A DNA stretch of 29,998 bases from Promethearchaeota archaeon Loki_b31 (GCA_005222975.1 NJBI01000042.1:1-29998); one strand, 5' to 3'. Positions 11,347 through 29,998 are shown, counted from the first letter of the stretch. Notes: generated from the sequence alone by a model not told the origin. Numbers and translations are program-made.

Positions 11347-12675
11347 TTAATACGCACTCCCTTTTTTCTTCGCTTCCATATATGTAGCTAAAACTTGACT
11401 CATCATATCATCTGGACCAACAGTTATAATATTAACTCCTAAATGTCTTACCTCTTGTTTAAATTTTAGGATGTGCTCCATCATTTCTTCACTGATCGCT
11501 TCAGCAAGAGCCTTATCTGTTGACGACAAATCAATTTCATGAATCTCAAACCAGGGGCTAAAAGGATTGATGATTATAATTGTATGATTAAATGGAAGCA
11601 ATTTTCGAATTGCATGTCCTATTTCTTTAACATCTGCTTCTAAATCTGAAATAACAAATATTAAACTACGTTTTTGGAATCGTCTGTTAAAAAAATCCAT
11701 TGCTTCAACCATTCTTAACTTTCCTTGTGGTTTGATTTTTGCAACAAAGTCTAATACTTGATAGAATTGATTATCTCCACTCCTGGGTTTTAAGAATTGG
11801 AGATTTTTCTTATCTGAAAAAGTAAATACGCCCACATTATCTTTACGAGTTAAAGCCACTTTAGTTAACAGCATACAAGCTCTGATTGCGTATTCGAATT
11901 TTGTGTTTTCTATTGCACCACCTGCCATAGAACTCGATGAATCTACCAATAGCATGATCGTTACATCTCTTTCACTTTCAAATTCCCTTACTATTAACTT
12001 CTGGGTTCGAGCACTCGCTTTCCAATCAATGAGTCTAAATTGATCTCCAAACACATACTTTCTCATTCCATAAAATTCTGAGCCAAGACCCTTCAGTTTT
12101 GATCTTTGTAGCCCATAATTTAAAGTTAAAGAGCGTTTAGAACCTAAAATTTCTATTCTTTTTATATCTTCGTAAGGAGGATAAATCAGTATATCTGAAA
12201 CACTGTCAGGCACAATTCTTTCCACCGAATTAAACCCTAATCTATCTTTAACCGTTACAGATAGTGGACCTAGAGGGTATTCACCCCTCACTTTTGGTTC
12301 CAGCACATAACTAAATTTTATTACATTTTTTGGTCCTATTCTTGTAGAAATAAAATTTTCCCCCAATACTAATCTAAAAAGTTGAGGGTTGTAATAATCC
12401 TTTATTTCCAGAAAATCAAAACTATTTTTGCCAGTATTCTCAATTACAACTTTTATATGAACAAAATCGTCTTTGAATACTTTCTCTTTTTCGAGCTCTC
12501 TATGTACCCGCAACTCTTCTATGTTCATTTGGTAATAGAAAAGGGGTAAGCTTACAACGGTACTAAATAGCAAAAGTATAGCGAAATAAACCAAAAAATA
12601 ATTCTCAAATGCAAATCCAGCTGTTAGAAAAAAAATTGAAAATAGAATTAAAGTCCTTCCTTTTCCTCCTAACAT
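11347..12675 (-). CDS. DUF58 family, membrane-anchored VWA-like MoxR partner
   Basis: N-terminal TM pair, RGEYPLGP, GSEFYGMRKYVFGD..RLIDWKASAR, VREFESE, MIDAS-like LLVDSSSSM. Confidence 0.92.
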   Translation of the reverse strand: MLGGKGRTLILFSIFFLTAGFAFENYFLVYFAILLLFSTVVSLPLFYYQMNIEELRVHRELEKEKVFKDDFVHIKVVIENTGKNSFDFLEIKDYYNPQLFRLVLGENFISTRIGPKNVIKFSYVLEPKVRGEYPLGPLSVTVKDRLGFNSVERIVPDSVSDILIYPPYEDIKRIEILGSKRSLTLNYGLQRSKLKGLGSEFYGMRKYVFGDQFRLIDWKASARTQKLIVREFESERDVTIMLLVDSSSSMAGGAIENTKFEYAIRACMLLTKVALTRKDNVGVFTFSDKKNLQFLKPRSGDNQFYQVLDFVAKIKPQGKLRMVEAMDFFNRRFQKRSLIFVISDLEADVKEIGHAIRKLLPFNHTIIIINPFSPWFEIHEIDLSSTDKALAEAISEEMMEHILKFKQEVRHLGVNIITVGPDDMMSQVLATYMEAKKKGSAY

Positions 12676-17674: not shown

Positions 17675-20600
17675 TCATGGTCTAAATAATTCTATCTCTG
17701 TAAATTCGATATAATAATGGGCTGGTGGAGTAAAACTATCTTCGGGATAAAAATTAGCCCATATTTCAGTCCCATCTGGCCAAATAGTATCAATGAAAAC
17801 AGTTATATTGAACCATCCACTACCATCAGTGGAACCAATCTCAGTTTTTATAATTCCCCCAAAACCATCTTCGATAGTAATGGTAATATTCCTGCTTCCT
17901 GTAATAAGAGATCCATTATCCCAATACAAATAACCATAAGCATATAATTCATCACCTTGATAGAATCCACCTTTAAAGATCGTATCATAATTACCAACTA
18001 TGTAAGTTCCTGCAGTTATATTCGCTGGAACGAGTATGCTACTTGTATTAATCATATAATTGGTAACATATATTCCTGGTTGACTAATTGTTCCATTAAA
18101 ATCAATCCTAAAGTAATATTGTCCTTGAGGACAATTAATTGAAATTGAATTCACATCAAATTGATAACTCCCGTCAAATACATTAATTATTTGACTTCCT
18201 GCTAAATTCAAATGATAAGAGACATCATTCATACTAGAGTCAAATAGTAAAATTTTGATATCCAATCCATTCAAATTGGTCGTTCCATCTTGAACAGAAC
18301 CGTATACGTTAAAAGTATCGACATTTCTTTGGATTTTAGGAATATTGGAAAATGCCGAGATACTTATTGTTTTGTTAATTATCACGAAAGTCGTGTTATA
18401 TGCCGGGAATGTTGACCATTGAACTCTTATTTTATGTAAACCGGCATGCCAAGAACTTGAATTGATTACAAAATCCCATCTCCCATTATCAGCAAGTTCA
18501 AATAGATGTGATCCAATCTGGGAATTAATATAAACATCGGTAAGTGTTACGGTTTCATCACTTACAAAACTTCCACTCACTGTAACATATACCGAAAATG
18601 TAATGTTATCTCCTTGATTATACCTTTCTGGCAGATTAGAATCGTCGTAAAACGATAAAGCCGGATTTCCATCAACCCAGAATTGAATGGCAACATTATT
18701 TGGGTCGATTACCTTCAATTCGAAGTTTCCATTATCATTACTAGTAAAATTACTATAAGTAAATATGTCAAAATAAAAATTAAATTCATTAAACTGATTA
18801 TTAGGAAATGAATAAATAAACACTCCATAAAATCCTACATTAATTGTAAAATTTATAGCAGGAGTCCCACTATCGACAGATAAAGTAAGATCGAATGTGC
18901 CAGTATCATCCAATTGGAACCAATTAGAAGATAAATAATAGGAAACATCTGTCATTGTATCATCAAATAATGCAATATAAATTTCAGTAAATTTTATTGG
19001 TGCGCCATTTGAAGCATCACTTATAGTACCTTGAAGCGTAAATGTTTCTCCACCCCTGTTAATTTGATTAGGATTGGGACCAACTTGAACATCAAGAGTT
19101 ATGTTATCATTCAGAGTGAAGTATGAATAATTATAATTCGATCCCCATTTCGCATATATTAAATGAGGTCCTGCGACCGTTGAAGCGTCTGTATTATAAA
19201 TTAATGAAGCTCTCCCATTATTTGTTTGAACGGTTCCAAGAAAGATATCTTGAGAGAGATCATAAAAATCGATAGCTTCATTATCAAGAGGATCACCCCA
19301 CTCTAAATAAACAGATAAATTTACATTTTCATTTCTATTAATTACAGGTTGATAATAATCGTCAAAAGTTGTACCATCTATCCAAAAATTAAATAATAGG
19401 GGTAAATCTTCTGTCACATTAAACTCTAATCTATTACTTGAATCAGTAATAGTGGGTATAAATACTGGAAAATTAAAATATGGCGTTAATATCCACCAAG
19501 TTCCGTTAAAATCTACTCTTATTTCGTATAGTCCTGAGGAAACAGAGGGATTTAAACTTAGTATTTCATCAAAATCGCCATTAACATTTGTATTTTTAGT
19601 CTCTGGGTTAAAAGCGTTCGGCACAATAGAAGAAGTGCCTTTTTGTAACAAAACAAAATTAACTTCTGCATTCTCAATCCTTTTTCCGTTAACGGGATCA
19701 TACACATATCCTTGAACATCGGATGTATGAGGTGGGGGATCAGATATACTAATTTCAGAAGGATTAACGCTAATAAGATCAACTTCAATAGGTCCTAAGA
19801 CATTAAAAATTGTATAGTTAAATGTACTTATATCATATTTTGCTTCAATTATATGGGGTCCTACAACTTGAGTATCATTAATACTTACCAAAATTGATGC
19901 GTTACCGTTTGAATCTGTAATGGCTGAGCTAATAGGTTGTCCAGACAAATAATCTGTGAAATAAATTGTCTTATTATCTACGGAGCTGTTATTAGAAATC
20001 AATGTAGCAGTAATGGTCGCGACATCAGGTCTATTATACGCGAACTGATCTGTTGATACAGTGATATTATAATCGCTTTCAAAAATGTTATATGGGACAC
20101 CCTTGAATATATCTATTTGAACCCATTCGCCATCCCCAGAAACATCCGTAGGCACATAAATTTCAGCCCAATTGTATATGTTTTTATTTTTTATTAAAAG
20201 AGCATTTTTCCCTTCCACTGTGTCATTTATTTCATCTGCCAAGAAACCACTAAACCCTTTAACATAACGACTAGCAACTCCAAAAGCTCTAGTAAAAGCA
20301 CAAAAGGCGGAAGCAAAATCTGACCATATTCCTTTTTCTTGTTCACAAAACCAATCAACAATATCTCTCCCTTGTGGAGCAGGATTGTAATCAGGAATTG
20401 ATGCAGGAAAAGAAAATGGAGGGCTCGTTAAATAATTTCTAATAATATTTGCAACTTCAAAAGCATTATCGCTAATATTTATTATCCCATACAAGATATT
20501 AAAATGATTTGTAAAAAAAGTATTAATAAGTTTATATGAATCGATCGAAGGAGGTAATTGTAAATATTGATTTCGAATTTCTAAGGGGGTGTATAAAGCG

Positions 20601-21301
20601 CTGAGTGCACTATTATTTATTTCAGCATCAGTGGGCAAATCTAAACCAAAAAGTTGATAAGATAAATTAACAGGTTGAGAATCACTAAAATGAAGATCCA
20701 CACTTACTGCATTAAAATCATCTTTATATAATACAGTTGATGCTTGATCTAAATTTGGAGCATCAATACTGTCTTCAATAATGAATGGTATAGGGAAAAG
20801 AGAAGGAAGAATCATTAAGTTATTACCAACTGCCGGAGAAATTGGGAATTGAATTTTTAATAATTCAGGATCTGGAAAATAATTATCAATATATTCTTGC
20901 ATTGGATAAAAACTATATAAACTTTTTCCAGCTAATAGAGATGATTTCCATTCATCGCCAGTATATTCATCAAAAGATTCAAATTTCCATAATTTTGTTT
21001 TTATTTCATTTATAGCACCATAATCAAATATTCGGAATATTTCCTTCTCATATTCAGAGGGATCAATATCAGGTAAGTCACCTATTTCAAATATTGTAGG
21101 AAAATAGATTAATATTGCATCTTCATCTTCTGCTTCGGACAATCGGTCGCTAGGATTGGGTCTTGGCCCCCCCCAGAGCAGACTAAAGAAAAAGATTGAA
21201 AACGCAAATGCTGTAATCAATAAACTAGCAACAAGAATTATTTTAATTACTTGTATTATACTAATAGCAGTAACTAATAAATCCTCACGAAATTCTGACA
21301 T
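17675..21301 (-). CDS. Membrane-anchored transglutaminase-like protein (catalytic residues substituted) with tandem Ig-like repeats
   Basis: N-terminal TM, LWKFESFDEYTGDEW (TgpA-N-like), DIVDWF..KGIWSDFASAF...RAFGVASRYVKGF, YNWAEIY and WVQID, followed by repeated beta-sandwich modules. Confidence 0.85.
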   Translation of the reverse strand: MSEFREDLLVTAISIIQVIKIILVASLLITAFAFSIFFFSLLWGGPRPNPSDRLSEAEDEDAILIYFPTIFEIGDLPDIDPSEYEKEIFRIFDYGAINEIKTKLWKFESFDEYTGDEWKSSLLAGKSLYSFYPMQEYIDNYFPDPELLKIQFPISPAVGNNLMILPSLFPIPFIIEDSIDAPNLDQASTVLYKDDFNAVSVDLHFSDSQPVNLSYQLFGLDLPTDAEINNSALSALYTPLEIRNQYLQLPPSIDSYKLINTFFTNHFNILYGIINISDNAFEVANIIRNYLTSPPFSFPASIPDYNPAPQGRDIVDWFCEQEKGIWSDFASAFCAFTRAFGVASRYVKGFSGFLADEINDTVEGKNALLIKNKNIYNWAEIYVPTDVSGDGEWVQIDIFKGVPYNIFESDYNITVSTDQFAYNRPDVATITATLISNNSSVDNKTIYFTDYLSGQPISSAITDSNGNASILVSINDTQVVGPHIIEAKYDISTFNYTIFNVLGPIEVDLISVNPSEISISDPPPHTSDVQGYVYDPVNGKRIENAEVNFVLLQKGTSSIVPNAFNPETKNTNVNGDFDEILSLNPSVSSGLYEIRVDFNGTWWILTPYFNFPVFIPTITDSSNRLEFNVTEDLPLLFNFWIDGTTFDDYYQPVINRNENVNLSVYLEWGDPLDNEAIDFYDLSQDIFLGTVQTNNGRASLIYNTDASTVAGPHLIYAKWGSNYNYSYFTLNDNITLDVQVGPNPNQINRGGETFTLQGTISDASNGAPIKFTEIYIALFDDTMTDVSYYLSSNWFQLDDTGTFDLTLSVDSGTPAINFTINVGFYGVFIYSFPNNQFNEFNFYFDIFTYSNFTSNDNGNFELKVIDPNNVAIQFWVDGNPALSFYDDSNLPERYNQGDNITFSVYVTVSGSFVSDETVTLTDVYINSQIGSHLFELADNGRWDFVINSSSWHAGLHKIRVQWSTFPAYNTTFVIINKTISISAFSNIPKIQRNVDTFNVYGSVQDGTTNLNGLDIKILLFDSSMNDVSYHLNLAGSQIINVFDGSYQFDVNSISINCPQGQYYFRIDFNGTISQPGIYVTNYMINTSSILVPANITAGTYIVGNYDTIFKGGFYQGDELYAYGYLYWDNGSLITGSRNITITIEDGFGGIIKTEIGSTDGSGWFNITVFIDTIWPDGTEIWANFYPEDSFTPPAHYYIEFTEIELFRP

Positions 21302-22470: not shown

Positions 22471-23568
22471 TTAAAAGCAATTCCAATAGGGATTTAAATG
22501 TTCTTTTAATTCGGGGATTAGTTTGCTATTTACATAATTTAAAACTTCTTCACCAGATTTTCTAGGCTTTTCTTCAATTAAATTGTCATCATTATTATTA
22601 AGAACTTGCAAACAATTATATACCGCTTTTGCTTGTTTATCGATTTCGTATCCCCCTTCTAATGTTATTAAAATTCTTCCATTTGCATATTCTTCTGCCA
22701 TAGTCTTTATGCTTTTTAGATAAGTTGCGGGTCCTTGAATTGTCCATCCCATATTGGTTAATCTATCTGTCCAATGAGTGTCGAACCCAGCAGAAATCAA
22801 GATAAATTCTGGTTTAAATTCTTGACATATTGGGTTTATTATTTCTTCGAAATATAACATTACAATATCTTCGGCAGCTCTTGGAGGCATAGAGTAATTT
22901 ATTATTTTTCCTTCACCTTTACCAGATCCTATGTCATTTACAAAACCGCTGCCAGGATATAATGTTCTACCGTCTTGGTGAGAGTTAAATATTACGACAT
23001 CTCCATTTTCAGAGCCGTTATAAAATATATCTTGAGTTCCATTTCCATGATGGCAATCCCAATCAATTATGGCAACTCTTTTAATATTTTTTTCTCTAAA
23101 TAGATACTCTGTAGCGATAGCGATGTTGTTGAATATACAAAACCCTGAACATTTATAGGCGTTTGAGTGATGTCCTGGAGGTCTAACTGCCGCGAATACA
23201 TTATTTACCTTACCCTCTAAAATTTCATCAATTCCATTTAAAAGACCTCCAACGCTATATAAAGAAGCGTCATAAGTCTTAGCAGATACTGCTGTATCCA
23301 TATCAAGTTGTTGAATATGTCCAGTAACTTGAGATATTTCACTAACTTCTTTAACTTCGTTAATTAAGCTCTCTTGATGGACATATTTAATTTGTTCGGT
23401 AGTAGCTTTTCTAGGTTGAATTAATTCGAAATTAGGATTTTCCATCACCTTTTTATCTTTTAAAAAATTCATAATACCAACAAGTCTTTCGTGGCTTTCA
23501 ACATGAACCCCAATCCGGTGGCTAAGGTATACTGGATCGTATACTATCCCTGTTTTCATTTTAACCAT
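22471..23568 (-). CDS. Histone deacetylase family (HDAC/AcuC/AphA) Zn-dependent deacylase
   Basis: RPPGHH, GFCIFNN, DWDCHHGNGTQ, YPGSG, SAGFD and LEGGY; catalytic set intact. Confidence 0.95.
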   Translation of the reverse strand: MVKMKTGIVYDPVYLSHRIGVHVESHERLVGIMNFLKDKKVMENPNFELIQPRKATTEQIKYVHQESLINEVKEVSEISQVTGHIQQLDMDTAVSAKTYDASLYSVGGLLNGIDEILEGKVNNVFAAVRPPGHHSNAYKCSGFCIFNNIAIATEYLFREKNIKRVAIIDWDCHHGNGTQDIFYNGSENGDVVIFNSHQDGRTLYPGSGFVNDIGSGKGEGKIINYSMPPRAAEDIVMLYFEEIINPICQEFKPEFILISAGFDTHWTDRLTNMGWTIQGPATYLKSIKTMAEEYANGRILITLEGGYEIDKQAKAVYNCLQVLNNNDDNLIEEKPRKSGEEVLNYVNSKLIPELKEHLNPYWNCF

Positions 23569-23604
23569 TTTTCAAACTATTGAATAATGTTTTTTTATTA
23601 TACT

Positions 23605-23620
23605 GCTATAAAAAACTTTC
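23605..23620 (-). promoter_or_regulatory. Putative BRE-TATA promoter of the HDAC gene
   Basis: Minus strand GAAAGTTTTTTATAGC about 38 bp upstream of the ATG. The same TTTTTATAGCA occurs upstream of leuS (4551-4561). Confidence 0.5.
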
Positions 23621-23737
23621 TATTTTTTTTTAACAGATAAGAGTCGTATAGAATATTTTCTATTAACCTTTTGGATATACCAATATCTTCAAAATCTATT
23701 TAACTAAATAATTAAAAATCTGATTGCTTTTAAAGAT

Positions 23738-26700
23738 TTATCCAAACCTTTCTTCTAAATAATCAATTACAGGAAATTTTTGAGAAGCTTTTATAATTCT
23801 TTTGTGTTCCTTTTGAATATTTTTTGTCAGTTTTTCGTAAAAGTAGTTAATCCTTTTAACATATATCTCTTTTTTTTCCATATCTACGAATATCTCTTCA
23901 GAATGTTCTCTAAATATAGTCGCTTCACTCATCGTGTGACAATTCGCACATAAACATATACATTCTTCTTGAATCATTTTATTTGCTAATTGCTTAATTG
24001 AAAACTTTCTAAAAGCTTCACTAGAAATATCCTTTTTCTTTTCAGGATTCATATGGTGAAAAGTTAAGAAACTAAGATTGGTTTCACCACAATTTATACA
24101 TTTACCTCCATAAAGCTGTTCTACGATTGCACGTTTTCGAATCCACGACTTAATCATATATTTTACATGTCCTATATATTGAGAATCTTTTTCTAATTTA
24201 TCTTTAAGGTTAGGATAGTTTAAAATGGCTTCATCAATCATATTGTTTATTTCTTTTGTATTTTTTTGTATACCTGATTTATTTTTAAACAAATGCTGGC
24301 TTAGAATTAAATTTTTATAATCTAAAAGAATACTTTGCTGTTTTGGAGCATGACAATTTTTACAGAGAGGAAAAACACCATCTTCTTCCAATAATTCCTT
24401 AAGGGTTTGATATTTTTTTTTTAACAATTTAATCCAAGAATAATTTTTCTCAGAAGGATGATGAAAATCAAAAGCTGGGAGGTGTAAAAAATCCGTTGAA
24501 CAATTAGAAGTGGAACACTTACCCTTAAATCTACCATTTTGCATTTCAAATAATAGCCGTAATTTTTTTTTATATTTTATAATTTCACCATATATACTCA
24601 TGCATTTTTTACATTTAGACAGGTGTCCTCCCTTAGATATTTTTTGAAACTCGCTCCATGGTTTTTTAATACCACAATACCCACATACTTTTCCTATTTC
24701 ATCTTGCTCCAATATTCTTTTGCTTAATGTTTTTAAATTAAAATCTGTAAAGATATGGTTCAAATGGTTTAGAATCTCTGGTAAGATTTTTGTTCTTAAT
24801 GTAACCAAAGCTGATTCTAAATTATAATTTCTCTTAATCAACTCCTGAGCAAAATTTTTTAGCTTCAATAGTTCTCCCTTAGATTTTTCGTTATATATCA
24901 TTAGACTACTTATAATAACAGTGAAATCTTTTATTGTTTTATCAAGAAATTGCTTGAATCCAGGACTATTTATAGGGGAACGGTCTAATATATTATTAAT
25001 TTTGATATAATTTTTCACTCTTTTTTCAATATCAACATTCTCCATGAAGATGTCCTGTTTATCTTTTAAACCAGACTTTAGTAGTAGGCTGTAGGTAATT
25101 TTACTTAATGTTTTGACAAAATTAATTGATAATCTAAATTTATTATCATATATAAAAATCTGGGTGTCTTTAACTCCAGGAATGTGATAGTCTTTAGAAA
25201 CATCCTTTGATATTAAAATACTTTCCCTTCTATGTAGTCCTCTCGGAAATCTCTTAGAATACAATTTTGTATTCCCTTGATAAATATACTTTAATGCTAC
25301 ATTCTTAACTGTCTCAGGATTTAAGGACAAGCCAAGGTTGGTCAAAACCTCTACTAACTGTGTTTGATTTAGATTCGTCGTTTGAATTAAGTCAATAATG
25401 AAATTTATGATTTCATTTCTTTTTATGATAGAATTACAGATTTTTTGTAATTCTTGGGAATTTTCTTTGTTATCAAGCCAATTCTTAAAATCTTTAGTAA
25501 TATATCGAGTTCCAAAATTGGGAGATTTATCCTCTCCTAAATTCTTAAAATGCTTAATATATTGAATAAAAGCAGTTACCAACTTTGGATTGAGTAGATA
25601 ATGATATTTAATTTTTAAAAATTCAGGTATTTCGATGTTTTTATTGAAGGACTCTTGATTATTATTGTTAGTTTGGATGAGCCCTTCAATATCAGATTTT
25701 GTAAATTTCTCAGTTAATTCTTTTACTTCATTTTTAAGAGAATTTTGTTGTTTCACAAGATCCAGACTAGGATCACATTCCTGGTTTTCAATTAATTGAC
25801 ATTTCTTTAATTTTAATTTTTCATTAGGATTTATTAACTCCTTTAATTTTAACATTTCTTGTTTCAAAATTTTACAATTCTGCGATATATGCTTAAAAAA
25901 TTTGCTAAGCACTCGATTAACAAGAGGTTTATTCCAAAAATCGTACCAATATTGCTCGGTGATATCTTTTTTAATAAAAAAAACACTTAATAATAATTCA
26001 AATTGGATCGGATCTAGCTCCTGTAGCCTTCCCGTCAAGGATTTTAATCTATTCTTTTCTTTTTCAGAGAGTTTTTCGTTTTGACCCTTTTCATATAATT
26101 CCATAAACTTTCGAGTCAAATCCTCGAACTCGTTATAACTCTCAAGGGCTTTTTTTAACTCAGATTTAAATTCAGCGTTGCAAACTTCCTCAGAAGCCTC
26201 TTTTATCCATTGATTAAGGGTTGTTTTCCAATCCTCTTCGTCCGATTCTTCACTTCCTAGCTTAGTAATTTCCTCAAGAAAATCTTTCTTATCTTTGGAT
26301 TCGGTTTCGATAGCGTCTAATTCTAGTTTTAATACTTTTAAATTTTCTTTATTTTCCTGCGCTTTCTTTAATTTTATTATTTTCTGCGAGATGTGTTTAA
26401 AAAAATGGCTAAGGATTCGATTTACTCGTGCTTTGTCCGAGAATTCGTCAAAATTTTGATCATTTAAAAAATGTTTAATAGCCCGTATGTTTGCAAATAG
26501 TTCGATCTTGCCGGATTCGAGTTTTTGGAGCGTTTTCGTTAACAACTTTAATTCTTGTTTTTCATGTTTAGAGAGTTTTTCGCGTTGTTCCTTGGTGTAT
26601 AATTTCATGAACATAGTCGCCAATTCTTCTAGTTCGCTATAGTTCTCAACGATTTCTTTTAACTTTACTTTAAGTTCGGGGCTAATTTCCCCTTCAGACA

Positions 26701-28939
26701 CTTGCTCTATCCAATCTTTTATTATTAATTCTGAATTTTCTTTATTTTCTTGCGCTTTCCTTAACTCTTTATATTTCTGTGAGATGTGCTTATAAAATTT
26801 GCTAAGCACTCGATTAACAAGAGGTGTATTCCAAAAATCATACCAATATTGGGTGATATAGTTTTTAATAAAAAAAACACTTGTTAATAGTTCTAGTTGG
26901 ATCGGATCTAGTTCCTGCAGCCTTTTTGTTAAGGATTTTAATGTATTCTTTTCTTTTTCAGAAAGTTTTTCGTTTTGAGACTTTTCATATAATTCCATAA
27001 ACTTTCGAGTCAAACCCTCGAACTCGTTATAACTCTCAAGGCCCTTTTTTAACTCAGATTTAAGTTCAACATTGCATTTTTCTTCAGAAGCTTCCTCTAT
27101 CCATTCTTTAAAGGTTGTTTTCCAATCTTCTTCTTTTTTCTGTTCTTCTTTTAGTTCTTTCTTCTGTTTCGGTTTCTCTTTTTCTTCCGATTTTTTTTTC
27201 TGTTCTAGCCACTGTTTAAATCCTTTTGTTTCCTTGTTCGCATAAATTGGTCTTTTCCCAGTCTGTTGTTTATAGAGCTTTTTAACTATCTCGTAGTTTT
27301 TTTCTTTGGTTTTATCCAAATCTTTTTCTTCCTGTTCGATTTCGTTGAGAGCTTCTTGTTCGATTTTTCTAACTTGTTCTAGGATTTCTTCTAATTCTTG
27401 TTGGTGATCTTTATTTTCCTCTATTTCTAATTGCTCTACCACTTCCTCGTCTGGAGAAGTAGTTTCCTGCTCTAGTTCTCTTTCTTGACTATTGTTTTCT
27501 ACTTTGGTCTCGCCAGTGTTTATTTTTTGGGGTATGTCGAGTTCGCGCATGATTTGAGCTACTTTCTGTTCTGTGGAGATTTCTTCTTGATCTTCATTCT
27601 CCTCGCGTTCTTCTTTTTTTTCATTTTGCTTATTTGCTAGTTCTTCTATGAATTCGTAAAAAAGCTCAGCTGCGAGTTGTTTCTCAGGCTCCAAGTTTTT
27701 GATGTATTCCAACTCTTCCTCGTTGATAATAGGTTTAGGCTCTGTTTTGAGTTCTTCCTCGATCGCGGCTTCGACTTGGTGTTGCTCAACTATGTCTTTT
27801 TCTTCATACTCCCACTCTAACTCCTGCTCTTGTTCTTCTAATCTTTCTTGGAGATAGGTCGATTGATGTATTACATCTTGAGTCTGTTCGATATTTTCTT
27901 TTTCTTGCTCAATTTTATCGTTCTCAATGTTTTTATCTTCTTCTTGCCTTTCTACTAATTCTTCTATGTATTCGCTAAGATGAACCATTTGAAACTGTTC
28001 CTCGATGTCCAACTCTTGAAGCTTTTCTATTCCTTTTTCGTTAACTATAGGTTCTGGTATGGTCTCGAGCTCCTCTTCGATCGTAGCTTCCACTTCATGT
28101 TGATCGAGCTCATCTCTTTCTACCTCTACTACTTCATATAGTTCAGAATTCGCTTCTTTTATTTTACTTGCTTGAGCTTCTACCTCATCCTTTTCTACTT
28201 GTTCTTTTAATTGTTCAATTTCTTCATTTTGCTTTTCCACTAACTCATCCACATATTCGTTAAGATGAACGGTTTGAAATTGTTCCTCGATATCCATCTC
28301 TTGAAGCTTTTCTACTTCTTTTTCGTTAACTATAGGTTCAGCTTCGGTCTCAAGTTCCTCTTGAATTGCAGATTCGACTTGATGTTGCTCAACTTTGTCT
28401 TTTTCTTCATCAAGTTCTTCGTATAGTTCTAGAGTTTCTTCTTTTAAATCGCTCAACTGAGGTTCTGAGATTTCCTCGCTTTGCTCTACTTCTTTTTCAA
28501 TTTCAAGATCTTCTTTATTTTCGGAAATTTCTTCATTAATGGTGTTAGTTTCTATTTCTTTCATACTTTCGTAGAGTTTTTCAGCGGTATAGGCAGCAGT
28601 TTCGACTTCTTTTTCCCATTCTTCATCGGTCATCTGATGTTCATCGCCTTCGAGCTCTCGTTCTTCGTCTAACGCCCTCTCTTTCCCCACCATTTCCTGA
28701 TAAGCGTTAATAAATTCTGCTTCGTCCTCTAAATATTTGTTTATGCCCTCTACTCCTTCCTCGAGTTCTTTCTCAATTTCTCTTTCTAATTCCTCTTGGT
28801 CGATTTCCTCACTGCCTTGATCACCATTCTGTATATTTTCGCTTACTAAGACTGTACTTGAGGATTCAGAACTGAGATTTTCGGAAAATTCGTTTCCTTG
28901 CTCAGAACTATCTGAAGGCGAATCACTATTAATATTCAT
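23738..28939 (-). CDS. Giant acidic multi-repeat protein with a C-terminal Zn finger and two HNH-like domains; frame is open a further 125 codons upstream (to 29314)
   Basis: E/Q-rich N-terminal half, two repeat families, CGYCG..CKKC, AFDFHH...LCKNCH, and GGKCINCG..TFHHMNP..LCANCH. Confidence 0.85.
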   Translation of the reverse strand: MNINSDSPSDSSEQGNEFSENLSSESSSTVLVSENIQNGDQGSEEIDQEELEREIEKELEEGVEGINKYLEDEAEFINAYQEMVGKERALDEERELEGDEHQMTDEEWEKEVETAAYTAEKLYESMKEIETNTINEEISENKEDLEIEKEVEQSEEISEPQLSDLKEETLELYEELDEEKDKVEQHQVESAIQEELETEAEPIVNEKEVEKLQEMDIEEQFQTVHLNEYVDELVEKQNEEIEQLKEQVEKDEVEAQASKIKEANSELYEVVEVERDELDQHEVEATIEEELETIPEPIVNEKGIEKLQELDIEEQFQMVHLSEYIEELVERQEEDKNIENDKIEQEKENIEQTQDVIHQSTYLQERLEEQEQELEWEYEEKDIVEQHQVEAAIEEELKTEPKPIINEEELEYIKNLEPEKQLAAELFYEFIEELANKQNEKKEEREENEDQEEISTEQKVAQIMRELDIPQKINTGETKVENNSQERELEQETTSPDEEVVEQLEIEENKDHQQELEEILEQVRKIEQEALNEIEQEEKDLDKTKEKNYEIVKKLYKQQTGKRPIYANKETKGFKQWLEQKKKSEEKEKPKQKKELKEEQKKEEDWKTTFKEWIEEASEEKCNVELKSELKKGLESYNEFEGLTRKFMELYEKSQNEKLSEKEKNTLKSLTKRLQELDPIQLELLTSVFFIKNYITQYWYDFWNTPLVNRVLSKFYKHISQKYKELRKAQENKENSELIIKDWIEQVSEGEISPELKVKLKEIVENYSELEELATMFMKLYTKEQREKLSKHEKQELKLLTKTLQKLESGKIELFANIRAIKHFLNDQNFDEFSDKARVNRILSHFFKHISQKIIKLKKAQENKENLKVLKLELDAIETESKDKKDFLEEITKLGSEESDEEDWKTTLNQWIKEASEEVCNAEFKSELKKALESYNEFEDLTRKFMELYEKGQNEKLSEKEKNRLKSLTGRLQELDPIQFELLLSVFFIKKDITEQYWYDFWNKPLVNRVLSKFFKHISQNCKILKQEMLKLKELINPNEKLKLKKCQLIENQECDPSLDLVKQQNSLKNEVKELTEKFTKSDIEGLIQTNNNNQESFNKNIEIPEFLKIKYHYLLNPKLVTAFIQYIKHFKNLGEDKSPNFGTRYITKDFKNWLDNKENSQELQKICNSIIKRNEIINFIIDLIQTTNLNQTQLVEVLTNLGLSLNPETVKNVALKYIYQGNTKLYSKRFPRGLHRRESILISKDVSKDYHIPGVKDTQIFIYDNKFRLSINFVKTLSKITYSLLLKSGLKDKQDIFMENVDIEKRVKNYIKINNILDRSPINSPGFKQFLDKTIKDFTVIISSLMIYNEKSKGELLKLKNFAQELIKRNYNLESALVTLRTKILPEILNHLNHIFTDFNLKTLSKRILEQDEIGKVCGYCGIKKPWSEFQKISKGGHLSKCKKCMSIYGEIIKYKKKLRLLFEMQNGRFKGKCSTSNCSTDFLHLPAFDFHHPSEKNYSWIKLLKKKYQTLKELLEEDGVFPLCKNCHAPKQQSILLDYKNLILSQHLFKNKSGIQKNTKEINNMIDEAILNYPNLKDKLEKDSQYIGHVKYMIKSWIRKRAIVEQLYGGKCINCGETNLSFLTFHHMNPEKKKDISSEAFRKFSIKQLANKMIQEECICLCANCHTMSEATIFREHSEEIFVDMEKKEIYVKRINYFYEKLTKNIQKEHKRIIKASQKFPVIDYLEERFG
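25875..27135 (-). repeat. Three ~125-aa helical repeats; copies 1 and 3 are DNA-level direct repeats about 900 bp apart
   Basis: EEDWKTT...WI.EASEE...YNEFE.LTRKFMELYEK...LQELDPIQ...YWYDFWN.PLVNRVLSKF.KHISQ occurs twice, with a divergent middle copy. TTTGCTAAGCACTCGATTAACAAGAGG is at 25901 and 26798. Confidence 0.9.
27620..28430 (-). repeat. Three ~65-70-aa acidic repeats
   Basis: QH(Q/E)VE(S/A)(A/T)I(Q/E)EEL.T..(E/K)PI(V/I)NE...E(Y/F)(V/I)(D/E)EL..(K/R)Q, three copies. Confidence 0.9.
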
Positions 28940-29021
28940 ATCACCACCTTCATCTGTTTCTTGAGAATTATTAGGCTCTCCTGTTGGCTCTAATTCATTT
29001 TCCTCATCGATTTTTTCCCTT

Positions 29022-29140
29022 TCGCTAAAATCAAGGGAACCATCAAAATCGTATTTATCTACTTCACTTAAATCAAGCGAACCATCAAAATCGTATTTAT
29101 CTGCCTCACTTAAATCTAGGGAACCATCAAGATCGTACTC
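29022..29140 (-). repeat. 42-bp tandem repeat, about 2.8 copies (encodes KYDFDGSLDLSExD in the giant-ORF frame)
   Basis: CCATCAA(A/G)ATCGTA starts at 29040, 29082 and 29124. Confidence 0.92.
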
Positions 29141-29306
29141 CTTATCAGAACCGAACCCTTCCTTGGTATCACTACTCGAATCGTCCTTATTATCTGACTC
29201 GCTCTCAGAACCAGTGTCTGACTCGCTTTCTTTTTCTCCTCCACTACCCTCGCCATATTCGCTGAAGAACCCTCTCCTCCCACTTGAAAATTGAATACTT
29301 TTTAGT

Positions 29307-29998
29307 TCACTTATTTATGTATTTTGCTCTACTGGTATTGAAATCAGGATAATAAAAATCGGGCGTAAAAATTTCGTATTTATACCCGTTAACACCATCA
29401 ATAACTATTGCTCTTCGGTGTTCTAATCCTTTTAAAAACTCTTGCTCTTCAATAATTTTCGTAAACAAATGGTTGCAGGAATGTGCCGTTCGGAAAACGA
29501 TTTGTATACTTGGTAATGAATGTACGCTCTCAAATAATCTTGATGGCTTATTATCGGCTGATAGTAGAGAAACACCTCGACTTCTAAAAACGCCTAAAAT
29601 GTTTTCCCACTTTTCATTTACGTAATATTTTGCCAAATGTTCGTCATCTGAATAGATTGGACTGCTTGCTTCTGCTAAAAAATCACCAATTTCGTCTAGC
29701 ATTATTACATACTGTAAATTTCCAAGAATCTTTTTGTTAAAATCGAGCTCATCGAGCTCTGGCGTAAAGATGCTTATCATTTGAAAAATTAAGAGCAAGA
29801 GCAGTCGCTTTTTTACGGCACTTTTACAACCGGTTAAATCGATAAAAACATCTTTACCGTTTTTCCATTCTCTAAACCAACTTGGTAGTTCTTTACGTAA
29901 CCTTACGATCTTATTAAGTACTGGCGAATTTAAAAGTCTGATAACCCGATTTTCGATTGCACTTCTCGTTCGTTGATTTATTTCGTCGTCGTATTTGA
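29307..29998 (-). CDS. C-terminal part of an FtsK/HerA-superfamily (HerA/VirB4/TraD-like) P-loop ATPase, truncated by the window edge
   Basis: The frame is open to the window end (KYDDEINQRTRSAIENRV...VFIDLTG...). Walker B YVIMLDEIG, then FRSRGVSLLSADNKPSRL (equivalent to RKxGhxhhhatQxP) and QIVFR. Walker A is not in the window. Confidence 0.72.
   Translation of the reverse strand, partial: KYDDEINQRTRSAIENRVIRLLNSPVLNKIVRLRKELPSWFREWKNGKDVFIDLTGCKSAVKKRLLLLLIFQMISIFTPELDELDFNKKILGNLQYVIMLDEIGDFLAEASSPIYSDDEHLAKYYVNEKWENILGVFRSRGVSLLSADNKPSRLFESVHSLPSIQIVFRTAHSCNHLFTKIIEEQEFLKGLEHRRAIVIDGVNGYKYEIFTPDFYYPDFNTSRAKYINK

Follow-up and report, generated by a model that had tools for sequence, protein, structure and literature searches.

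The window analysed here is the complete 29,998-bp contig C1 (NJBI01000042.1:1-29998) of a Promethearchaeota genome bin, Promethearchaeota archaeon Loki_b31 (GCA_005222975.1; Lokiarchaeia, 3.5 Mb, 99 contigs, 92% complete). At its right-hand end it carries part of a module in which the gene of a HerA/DUF87-clade ATPase is directly followed by that of a giant acidic protein with an exchangeable C-terminal nuclease cassette. We tentatively interpret this module as a lineage-specific, multi-copy accessory system of the Lokiarchaeia, in which a membrane translocase would deliver a polymorphic, homing-type nuclease effector; it looks like a new translocation or conflict system. A first-pass annotation, made from the sequence alone, could assign the architecture to no named system, and PADLOC, Pfam, membership tests for known systems and the literature searched did not name it either. 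The module is undescribed in that literature (a 2019 mBio survey of archaeal polymorphic toxins lay outside the search). Between the effector, mobile element and defence functions considered in that annotation, the present data narrow the choice without settling it.

Linkage of the two genes was surveyed in the 30 best ATPase loci, drawn from different genomes, 28 of which had readable downstream sequence. A partner was counted if it was a same-strand open reading frame (ORF) with an aspartate plus glutamate content (D+E) of at least 0.30, starting between -35 and +40 nucleotides (nt) from the ATPase stop codon. A very acidic ORF directly follows the ATPase in 23 of the 28 informative loci. 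The linkage, which the first-pass annotation had proposed to look for in homologues, persists down to about 28-30% ATPase identity and extends to giants lacking the helical repeats described below (genomes G055 and G019). In G055, a closed genome of 6.0 Mb, an ATPase of 859 aa precedes an acidic giant of 1,823 aa. In the window, the frame of the giant opens 8 nt ahead of the end of the ATPase stop codon. Such abutting or overlapping of ATPase stop and giant start suggests translational coupling.

The strongest new clue is a membrane component, which lay outside the view of the first-pass annotation. In 13 of the 30 loci the gene upstream of the ATPase encodes a protein of 232-285 amino acids (aa; about 255 aa) with four to seven transmembrane (TM) helices and an HExxH motif, conserved as HE(L/I)(S/C)H in all 13. 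This upstream protein of sister loci, situated outside the window, reaches 26.4 bits against a cut-off of 26 for Peptidase_M50B and stays below the cut-off for M50. Other loci, sister copies of the window locus among them, have instead an upstream protein of about 1,300 aa (1,308 aa) with two TM hairpins; upstream genes belonging to sister copies are located on contigs C97 and C19. The C-terminal part of the 1,308-aa protein can be aligned with the ATPase core (hhalign 80%, E 1.4e-5; PADLOC mad8, E 2.4e-5) and is, judged by sequence, a putative degenerate ATPase paralogue; a PDB profile search with the 1,308-aa protein returned nothing. In further homologues three to seven TM helices are fused to the ATPase itself, with four to six at the N-terminus of many full-length homologues. 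Because its loci contain upstream TM proteins or TM fusions, the ATPase is predicted to work at the membrane. Those membrane-anchored FtsK/HerA superfamily proteins known to us (FtsK/SpoIIIE, EssC/EccC, VirD4, CedB) are translocases. Upstream of the membrane protein, operons of the M50 type encode a protein of 304 aa which resembles TFB by eye and has a CxxC...CxxC ribbon at its N-terminus (L029:12142-13053 (-) and the L030 equivalents); its Pfam matches are insignificant (E > 0.05) and none of them is TFIIB.

As the window is all of contig C1, which terminates inside the ATPase gene, this gene is cut at 29996. The remaining fragment contains the Walker B motif MLDEIGDF and the arginine-finger region RSRG..SADNKPSRL; the full-length protein (681 aa, Walker A GLTGAGKS) is known from the closely related paralogue on contig C66, and an intact copy with 91% identity is present in genome G009. 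In an alignment of 11 homologues the Walker A motif GxxGxGKS, the DE of Walker B and the arginine are invariant. The profile of these homologues found HerA chains as top PDB matches (E 6.7e-6 for 8xau to 4e-5; also 4d2i), and further the packaging ATPase B204 of Sulfolobus turreted icosahedral virus. The chains 8xau and 8wiv presumably belong to defence complexes of the Sir2/DUF4297-HerA type. Pfam DUF87 scored above its cut-off for the C13 paralogue and below it for the C66 copy, the Atlas neighbours of the ATPase are DUF87 clusters without exception, and distant relatives show weak TrwB_AAD_bind matches. Walker A, Walker B, arginine finger and profile similarity to the HerA central domain place the protein, which consists of a single P-loop domain and its own N-terminal domain of about 300 aa, in the HerA/DUF87 clade, in agreement with the FtsK/HerA-type ATPase seen at first pass abutting a large same-strand gene. 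That it might be an ordinary HerA of a repair operon, a possibility raised in the same annotation, is not borne out: NurA (PF09376) was not found anywhere in the 92%-complete genome, and DUF87 genes scoring better than the module ATPase exist elsewhere in it, from which we conclude that the latter is not the repair HerA. Its neighbours are the membrane protein and the giant, in place of the NurA (and Mre11/Rad50) gene of a HerA-NurA DNA end-resection operon.

This affiliation bears on a possible, though rather doubtful, alternative, namely that the module is an intracellular defence against viruses or plasmids. A HerA ATPase tethered to the membrane at the entry point of foreign DNA would load onto or sense invading DNA and license the giant nuclease, whose C-terminal tips would vary by arms race, as they do in other defence systems. 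The best matches of the ATPase in PDB and PADLOC are indeed HerA chains and the mad8, "type III coevolved" HerA and DndH models, with E-values of 3e-9 to 2e-14 for the mad8/HerA models against the G009 and C13 copies. Defence genes typically show effector swapping, patchy multi-copy spread and insertion at variable sites, their effectors are often HNH, GIY-YIG-like or Vsr-type nucleases, and no immunity gene would be required, in line with none having been found. However, the PADLOC matches are limited to the P-loop core, and PADLOC v2 found no match for the giant, for the membrane proteins or for the entire module, so that no complete known defence system was recognised. About 11 effector paralogues compared to 4-5 ATPases per genome would be unusual for defence, LAGLIDADG and TFIIB-cyclin tips are atypical, and to our knowledge neither the acidic region of 500-750 aa with short linear repeats nor the TM-fused ATPases have a counterpart in HerA defence systems.

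The reading of the giant as a polymorphic effector is based on its paralogues. At least nine genes with the helical-repeat scaffold are present in this genome, four of them adjoining an ATPase, and their C-terminal tips differ (Table 1). Among 42 database homologues, all of which, where the organism is named, come from Promethearchaeota, LAGLIDADG_3 is the commonest tip, and TFIIB-cyclin, RNase_T and intein domains occur, too. The copies share a scaffold with 87-90% nucleotide identity, and the breakpoints are sharp and situated at repeat ends. Between the window copy and C66, an identity of 89.6% runs unbroken over 4,186 nt and halts abruptly at 25813, the end of repeat A'; compared to C96, identity halts at 26398, the end of repeat B. 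The first-pass annotation had proposed that homologues might keep the N-terminal scaffold and swap their C-termini, and this is what paralogues and homologues do. A constant N-terminal part with recombined C-termini is also what is described for polymorphic toxins (PMC3482391), in which the constant part serves trafficking.

Of 135 genomes in one Lokiarchaeia family, 54 carry the ATPase, with up to 9 copies per genome and a spread over 9 of 13 genera; giant genes number about 10 per genome. The module is thus common in this family, clearly delimited and internally coherent, and hence directly testable. The scaffold occurs in 8 of 40 genomes of the window's family and in none of 160 genomes from the phylum's other families, and is multi-copy where present. 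Together with the insertion relative to five relatives described below, this makes the module patchy and insertion-polymorphic; invariant C-termini with neither mobility nor patchy distribution would have spoken against the first-pass proposal.

In the window copy the exchangeable cassette ends in the two HNH domains and the CxxC zinc finger already noticed at first pass, the latter being a CxxC...CxxC ribbon. Ribbon and both HNH units lie within the last 334 aa of the giant. In both units C..C, HH and C.NCH are invariant in five proteins, and the PHROG family "HNH endonuclease" (phrog_2255) matches the giant C-terminus in two stretches (E 2.9e-18). A profile of the HNH unit found the McrA HNH domain first and in register among PDB entries, with a marginal E of 0.065; Pfam HNH reached an E of only 0.53 against the giant. 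The signature CxxC...HH...CxxCH and the profile similarity place the units in the HNH (beta-beta-alpha-metal) class. Fold searches with the model of the whole 334-aa C-terminus gave nothing significant (weak Cas9/IscB HNH entries in Foldseek; VIA-align Z of 4.5 at most), and Pfam assigned no significant family to the giant, to the 1,308-aa protein encoded upstream of the ATPase or to the two G005 proteins introduced below. The segment resembling a helix-turn-helix (HTH) in the first-pass annotation corresponds to a module which recurs three times in the C66 paralogue; its identity as HTH found no confirmation in profile or structure searches, the best PDB profile match being Nab2 (E 0.08).

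The module is inserted next to a conserved gene. The first-pass annotation had noticed housekeeping neighbours with no obvious link, and the histone-deacetylase-family (HDAC) gene beside the giant is in fact a single-copy core gene; since the same site is empty in relatives, it was rejected as a functional partner. In five relatives in which the site is empty, the upstream neighbour of the HDAC gene is a divergently transcribed small GTPase gene about 110 nt away, with a constant gene order behind it. Here, the GTPase gene and its fixed followers sit at the beginning of contig C41, which by synteny should continue beyond the ATPase end of C1. Because neighbours only about 110 nt apart in the relatives are here split between C1 and C41, we regard the module as an insertion into the HDAC/GTPase intergenic region. 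Genome G005 carries at the same site a 208-aa gene and a 929-aa gene. In the product of the latter, the last 658 aa show 89.8% identity to the cassette of the window giant, and the first 300 aa or so come from a different multi-copy family. Carrying the same cassette on another N-terminus, G005 indicates that the cassette of about 660 aa moves between unrelated heads.

Several observations were made around this site. The second multi-copy family (a gene of about 208 aa followed by that of a protein of about 900 aa) is represented by L045:3107-6504 (G005:C69) and, in the genome studied here, on C87, C72, C46 (three copies), C38, C45 and C12. Its larger protein has a zinc-ribbon N-terminal part of about 300 aa; in C12 and C45 it apparently comprises TFB-like cyclin, tandem HNH and winged HTH parts. 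This family carries the exact HNH cassette of the window giant, and the G005 pair matched no Pfam family. The left edge of the insertion bears a 197-aa gene (G000:C41:93-683 (-)), 91% nucleotide-identical to L025:997-1604 (G017:C82), which in G017 is located about 2.7 kb upstream of an M50-like/ATPase/giant module; an ORF looking like a PD-(D/E)xK nuclease stands beside the 197-aa gene, which might also belong to the mobile unit. Also on this contig, G000:C41:4252-7989 (-) has about 1,246 codons compared to 710 aa in its orthologue, due to an in-frame insertion of about 520 aa at residues ~341-355 of the relatives' protein. This insertion is probably an intein, possibly with a homing endonuclease.

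Such a site might alternatively reflect a selfish mobile module, which we consider unlikely. Here the homing-type cassette would cut specific sites and drive copying of itself or of the entire gene to new loci and paralogues, with the membrane ATPase as a Ced- or type IV secretion system (T4SS)-like DNA translocase and the giant as a pilot coupling the cut DNA to the pump. The tips do come from classical homing-endonuclease families (LAGLIDADG, phage-type HNH, T5orf172/GIY-YIG-like), the copies are similar enough to break the assembly at three contig ends, and gene conversion following cleavage would agree with breakpoints in repeated scaffold sequence. Finding the same cassette at the same intergenic site in two genomes with different heads would be expected if the cassette specified the site. 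Archaeal Ced DNA import, too, combines a polytopic membrane protein with a HerA/VirB4-like ATPase. On the other hand, the flanks read showed neither integrase, transposase or replication genes nor terminal repeats, one pattern scan of viral contigs with the ATPase alignment yielded no relative, and simple homing leaves the purifying selection on the long acidic scaffold unexplained.

Ahead of the cassette, the giant contains the scaffold which defines the family. The short basic/aromatic motif mentioned in the first-pass annotation (TGKRPIY...T.GF.QWLEQ) is nearly invariant in 27 homologues, with T, G, R, Y, T, W and L wholly invariant; a related motif appears again at residues 1141-1166. Three helical repeats had been predicted at first pass with a length of 125 aa. 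Number and helical nature agree with our AlphaFold2 (AF2) model; the unit measures about 135 aa, and the order is A-B-A' (residues 603-739, 731-870 and 901-1036), A and A' being 83-88% identical. AF2, using the 27-sequence alignment for the basic motif and repeats A-B, predicts all-helical bundles linked by long helices (pLDDT 80.7), and a fold search with this model gave no significant match. Pfam matches to RelE and HepT in the repeats were below the cut-off and were ascribed to chance.

Counted from its first ATG (28939), the giant ORF covers 23738-28939 (-) and encodes 1,733 aa, the minimum length given at first pass; the frame is in fact open further upstream (Table 1). Its dN/dS (ratio of non-synonymous to synonymous substitution rates) indicates that the 125 codons ahead of this ATG are coding, the value being on par with the remainder of the gene. 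They encode acidic-aromatic tandem repeats of 14 aa, DKYDFDGSLDLSEA. An ATA at 29312-29314 is the candidate start, and in this subgroup the first codon is ATA or ATT. Four copies from two genomes have 109-163 conserved codons under purifying selection before the first ATG, GTG or TTG (window 28940-29314 (-); L007:2539-3027; L008:617-943). Non-canonical initiation overlapping the ATPase stop (ATAAGTGA) may take place, our guess being based on the "I-S-E" N-terminus which recurs among other family members. Homologues of other genomes mostly have an ATG, GTG or TTG at most 3-14 codons from the ATPase stop. The C96 copy has a 1-nt deletion in the start region and a private ATG further down. The giant frame is +1 relative to the ATPase in C1 and C66 and in-frame in C96. 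A bulge-helix-bulge micro-intron removing the ATPase stop and joining ATPase and giant was rejected, as a scan for such motifs found nothing conserved across three copies, and inspection for a programmed frameshift from an out-of-frame ATG/GTG beside a GGAGG motif revealed no conserved slippery site.

The acidic low-complexity region reported at first pass was confirmed by a D+E content of 31-38% in residues 1-500. The three repeats predicted within it are present as well, with a period of about 95-106 aa instead of the 70 aa originally given. The short acidic-aromatic N-terminal arrays vary by subfamily: DKYDFDG, EFDDLIPEVFSE, WDDIDWSED, DFDPND and YDPFSL occur. Acidic tracts of histone chaperones and activators bind basic partners, and by analogy the giant might be a chromatin or transcription scaffold whose C-terminal modules bind specific DNA, with or without an active nuclease, and whose acidic-aromatic repeats bind histones or other basic partners, with the ATPase remodelling or loading the complex. 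The subfamily-specific arrays would suit such a role, as would the TFIIB-cyclin tips within the family and the 304-aa gene, TFB-like by eye, in some operons. We nevertheless judge it very improbable, as it leaves the membrane association of the ATPase unexplained, as a patchy, multi-copy and insertion-polymorphic behaviour is unlike that of a core chromatin factor, and as the neighbouring HDAC gene does not belong to the module, being a conserved core gene beside which an insertion hot spot is situated.

Table 1. Features of the module and its right-hand flank in the window, and C-terminal tips of the giant paralogues
Feature	Position	Strand	Remarks
HDAC gene	22471-23568	(-)	Single-copy in 31 of 41 genomes of the genus
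Right-hand junction, inserted module/core gene	23569-23737		Site empty in five relatives
Giant gene	23738-29314	(-)	Open frame of 1,858 codons; purifying selection over whole frame
Exchangeable C-terminal cassette, ~660 aa	23741-25726	(-)	HTH-like module, Zn ribbon, HNH units 1 and 2; AF2 pLDDT 78.6
HNH unit 2	23903-24130	(-)	Residues 1604-1679
HNH unit 1	24323-24541	(-)	Residues 1467-1539
Zn ribbon CxxC...CxxC	24602-24685	(-)	C1419-C1446
HTH-like module	25175-25594	(-)	Residues ~1116-1255
Recombination junction	25726-25813	(-)	C66 identity ends at 25813; G005 cassette identity begins at 25726
Three ~135-aa helical-bundle repeats	25832-27133	(-)	Family-defining scaffold; A 26723-27133, B 26330-26749, A' 25832-26239
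Basic/aromatic motif	27161-27262	(-)	Residues 560-593; precedes helical repeats
Acidic, probably disordered region	27275-28939	(-)	D+E 27-38%
Three acidic repeats (~95 aa)	27617-28465	(-)	Residues 159-240, 254-335 and 350-441; 50-68% identity
N-terminal extension, 125 codons	28940-29314	(-)	No ATG/GTG/TTG; kept in 3-4 copies with synonymous changes; dN/dS 0.22-0.25
HerA/DUF87-clade ATPase (divergent), C-terminal 229 aa	29307-29996	(-)	Truncated by contig end; Walker B and arginine-finger region; 94% identical to full C66 copy
C-terminal tip: tandem HNH	C1 (window copy)		
C-terminal tip: LAGLIDADG_3	C96, C13, C5		
C-terminal tip: DUF4379 Zn finger and CapR	C75		
C-terminal tip: T5orf172	C44		
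C-terminal tip: no family assigned	C66 and others		

As a translocation system, the module would have three parts: a membrane component (the HExxH M50-like protein of about 255 aa, the two-hairpin protein of about 1,300 aa, or TM helices within the ATPase itself), the HerA/DUF87-clade ATPase as an active ring, and the giant, whose gene abuts or overlaps the ATPase stop. Seated at the membrane, the ATPase would bind the giant via its N-terminal acidic-aromatic repeats and the long polyanionic region and then translocate it across the membrane or present it there. The cargo would be the C-terminal DNA-targeting cassette, i.e. HTH-like modules and a presumably active homing-type nuclease (tandem HNH in the window copy), aimed at neighbouring cells or at invading DNA. 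The HExxH membrane protein may process the substrate, comparable to peptidase-containing exporters trimming leader peptides. The helical repeats would act both as a stalk and as recombination substrate for cassette exchange, giving rise to a polymorphic-effector family. The data themselves establish the conserved gene order, the membrane link, the exchange of cassettes, the insertion polymorphism and the intactness of the catalytic motifs; the mechanism built on them is our proposal. A more speculative and quite unlikely version, a new kind of protein-delivery machine in archaea, is that the membrane-anchored HerA-type ring, usually a pump for DNA, threads a DNA-like polyanionic leader of 500-750 aa and exports homing-type nucleases between Asgard cells. 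These would cut only genomes without the matching insertion and would act as a kin-discriminating weapon and a protein-delivered gene drive.

Several findings weigh against delivery by a translocase. By sequence, the characterised ATPases closest to that of the module are not secretion ATPases but cytoplasmic HerA proteins involved in repair and defence, and the ATPase profile reached E-values of only 0.13-0.15 with FtsK, VirB11 and DotL in PDB. About 60% of the giants in this genome have no adjacent ATPase. No cell-surface or export signature was found for the module. A conserved small immunity-type gene after the giants was not found, and neither immunity genes nor stand-alone toxin cassettes, both described for polymorphic toxins (PMC3482391), occur downstream of any copy examined; the downstream genes differ at every locus examined, and in the window the giant is followed after 170 nt by the core HDAC-family gene. 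LAGLIDADG, the tip met most often, is a homing-type nuclease with sequence specificity, the word being absent from the text consulted of the polymorphic-toxin survey (PMC3482391), and TFIIB-cyclin tips are non-toxins. For the subgroup of the window copy, ATA/ATT competes as start candidate with the ATG (28939 in the window). Furthermore, the C75 giant copy (L034:5735-9399, G000:C75) is split by stops within the repeat region into three or more ORFs (184, 385 and 671 aa) and is probably decaying, and the C66 ATPase copy contains an in-frame TAG (L007:1860-1862, G000:C66; TAC for tyrosine in C1), which may reflect a pseudogene or an error. Single in-frame stops were also seen in several ATPase homologues of other genomes.

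The remaining genes of the window are ordinary, encoding e.g. leucyl-tRNA synthetase, a lipoate ligase, radical-SAM enzymes, F420-related proteins, a DUF58/VWA protein and a transglutaminase-like protein besides the HDAC-family protein. Downstream of the HDAC gene, the 1,208-aa transglutaminase-core protein with CarboxypepD_reg-like domains (17675-21301 (-)) and the DUF58/VWA protein (11347-12675 (-)) apparently have no tie to the module. On contig C96, a leucine-rich-repeat (LRR) protein and a Roc/Arf-type small GTPase are encoded directly after the LAGLIDADG-tipped paralogue (L008:4745-6220, G000:C96); the LRR protein is not conserved after other copies. DNA matches to the window occur in marine sediment and cold-seep DNA metagenomes (0.23-0.33 of sampled words), and no RNA dataset was among the matching metagenomes.

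If the module is a translocase, it would represent a new HerA-motor-based secretion or delivery route; if it serves defence, it would add a new HerA-nuclease type tethered to the membrane, and as a mobile element it would account for some of the genome plasticity of these organisms and for the repeated breaks in assembly. New DNA-targeting domains might also be drawn from the nuclease cassettes, which are interchangeable and probably sequence-specific.

Among known systems, type VIIb/LXG export is the nearest analogue. It shares with the module a membrane-tied ring ATPase of the FtsK/HerA superfamily (EssC/YueA-type) and substrates which lack a Sec signal, contain a helical N-terminal part and recombined C-terminal nucleases, and occur as several effector paralogues per genome (PMC3482391). 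Polymorphic toxins of this pathway are exported by a YueA-like FtsK/HerA ATPase and carry an N-terminal helical recognition domain; classical polymorphic toxin systems are reported to be rare in archaea (PMC3482391). However, none of the type VII/LXG features tested (a three-domain EssC-type ATPase, a WXG100/LXG Pfam domain on the giant, an immunity gene) was found, nor were WXG100, LXG, EsaA or EssB-type components in Pfam scans or the flanks read. Instead of three FtsK-type domains the module ATPase has one HerA/DUF87 P-loop domain, and its substrate has an acidic region of 500-750 aa, homing-type tips, no immunity genes found and an archaeal host.

Sir2-HerA, DUF4297-HerA and HerA-NurA contain the closest ATPase relatives with known structures and, like the module, combine an ATPase with nuclease or effector genes in one operon. 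In Sir2-HerA and DUF4297-HerA, small effectors are bound to a soluble HerA ring, whereas the module has a modular acidic partner of 1,200-2,000 aa and membrane partners or TM fusions. It differs from HerA-NurA in that no NurA was found in the genome, and from HerA defence systems in that their models stop at the P-loop core. The Ced system and the T4SS coupling proteins (VirD4/VirB4) resemble the module in combining a polytopic membrane protein with a HerA/VirB4-like ATPase. The similarity is at superfamily level only (VirB11, DotL: E 0.13-0.15), pilin and other Ced/T4SS genes were not seen in the flanks, and those systems do not include a giant acidic partner. Finally, free-standing homing endonucleases and polyvalent proteins offer LAGLIDADG, phage-type HNH (phrog_2255) and T5orf172 tips as well as large, shuffled modular proteins encoded by mobile genes. 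Unlike the polyvalent proteins of phages and conjugative elements, the module was not found in a phage or plasmid context, and unlike in stand-alone homing genes or intron and intein ORFs, its nuclease is the tip of a conserved, ATPase-coupled chromosomal scaffold.

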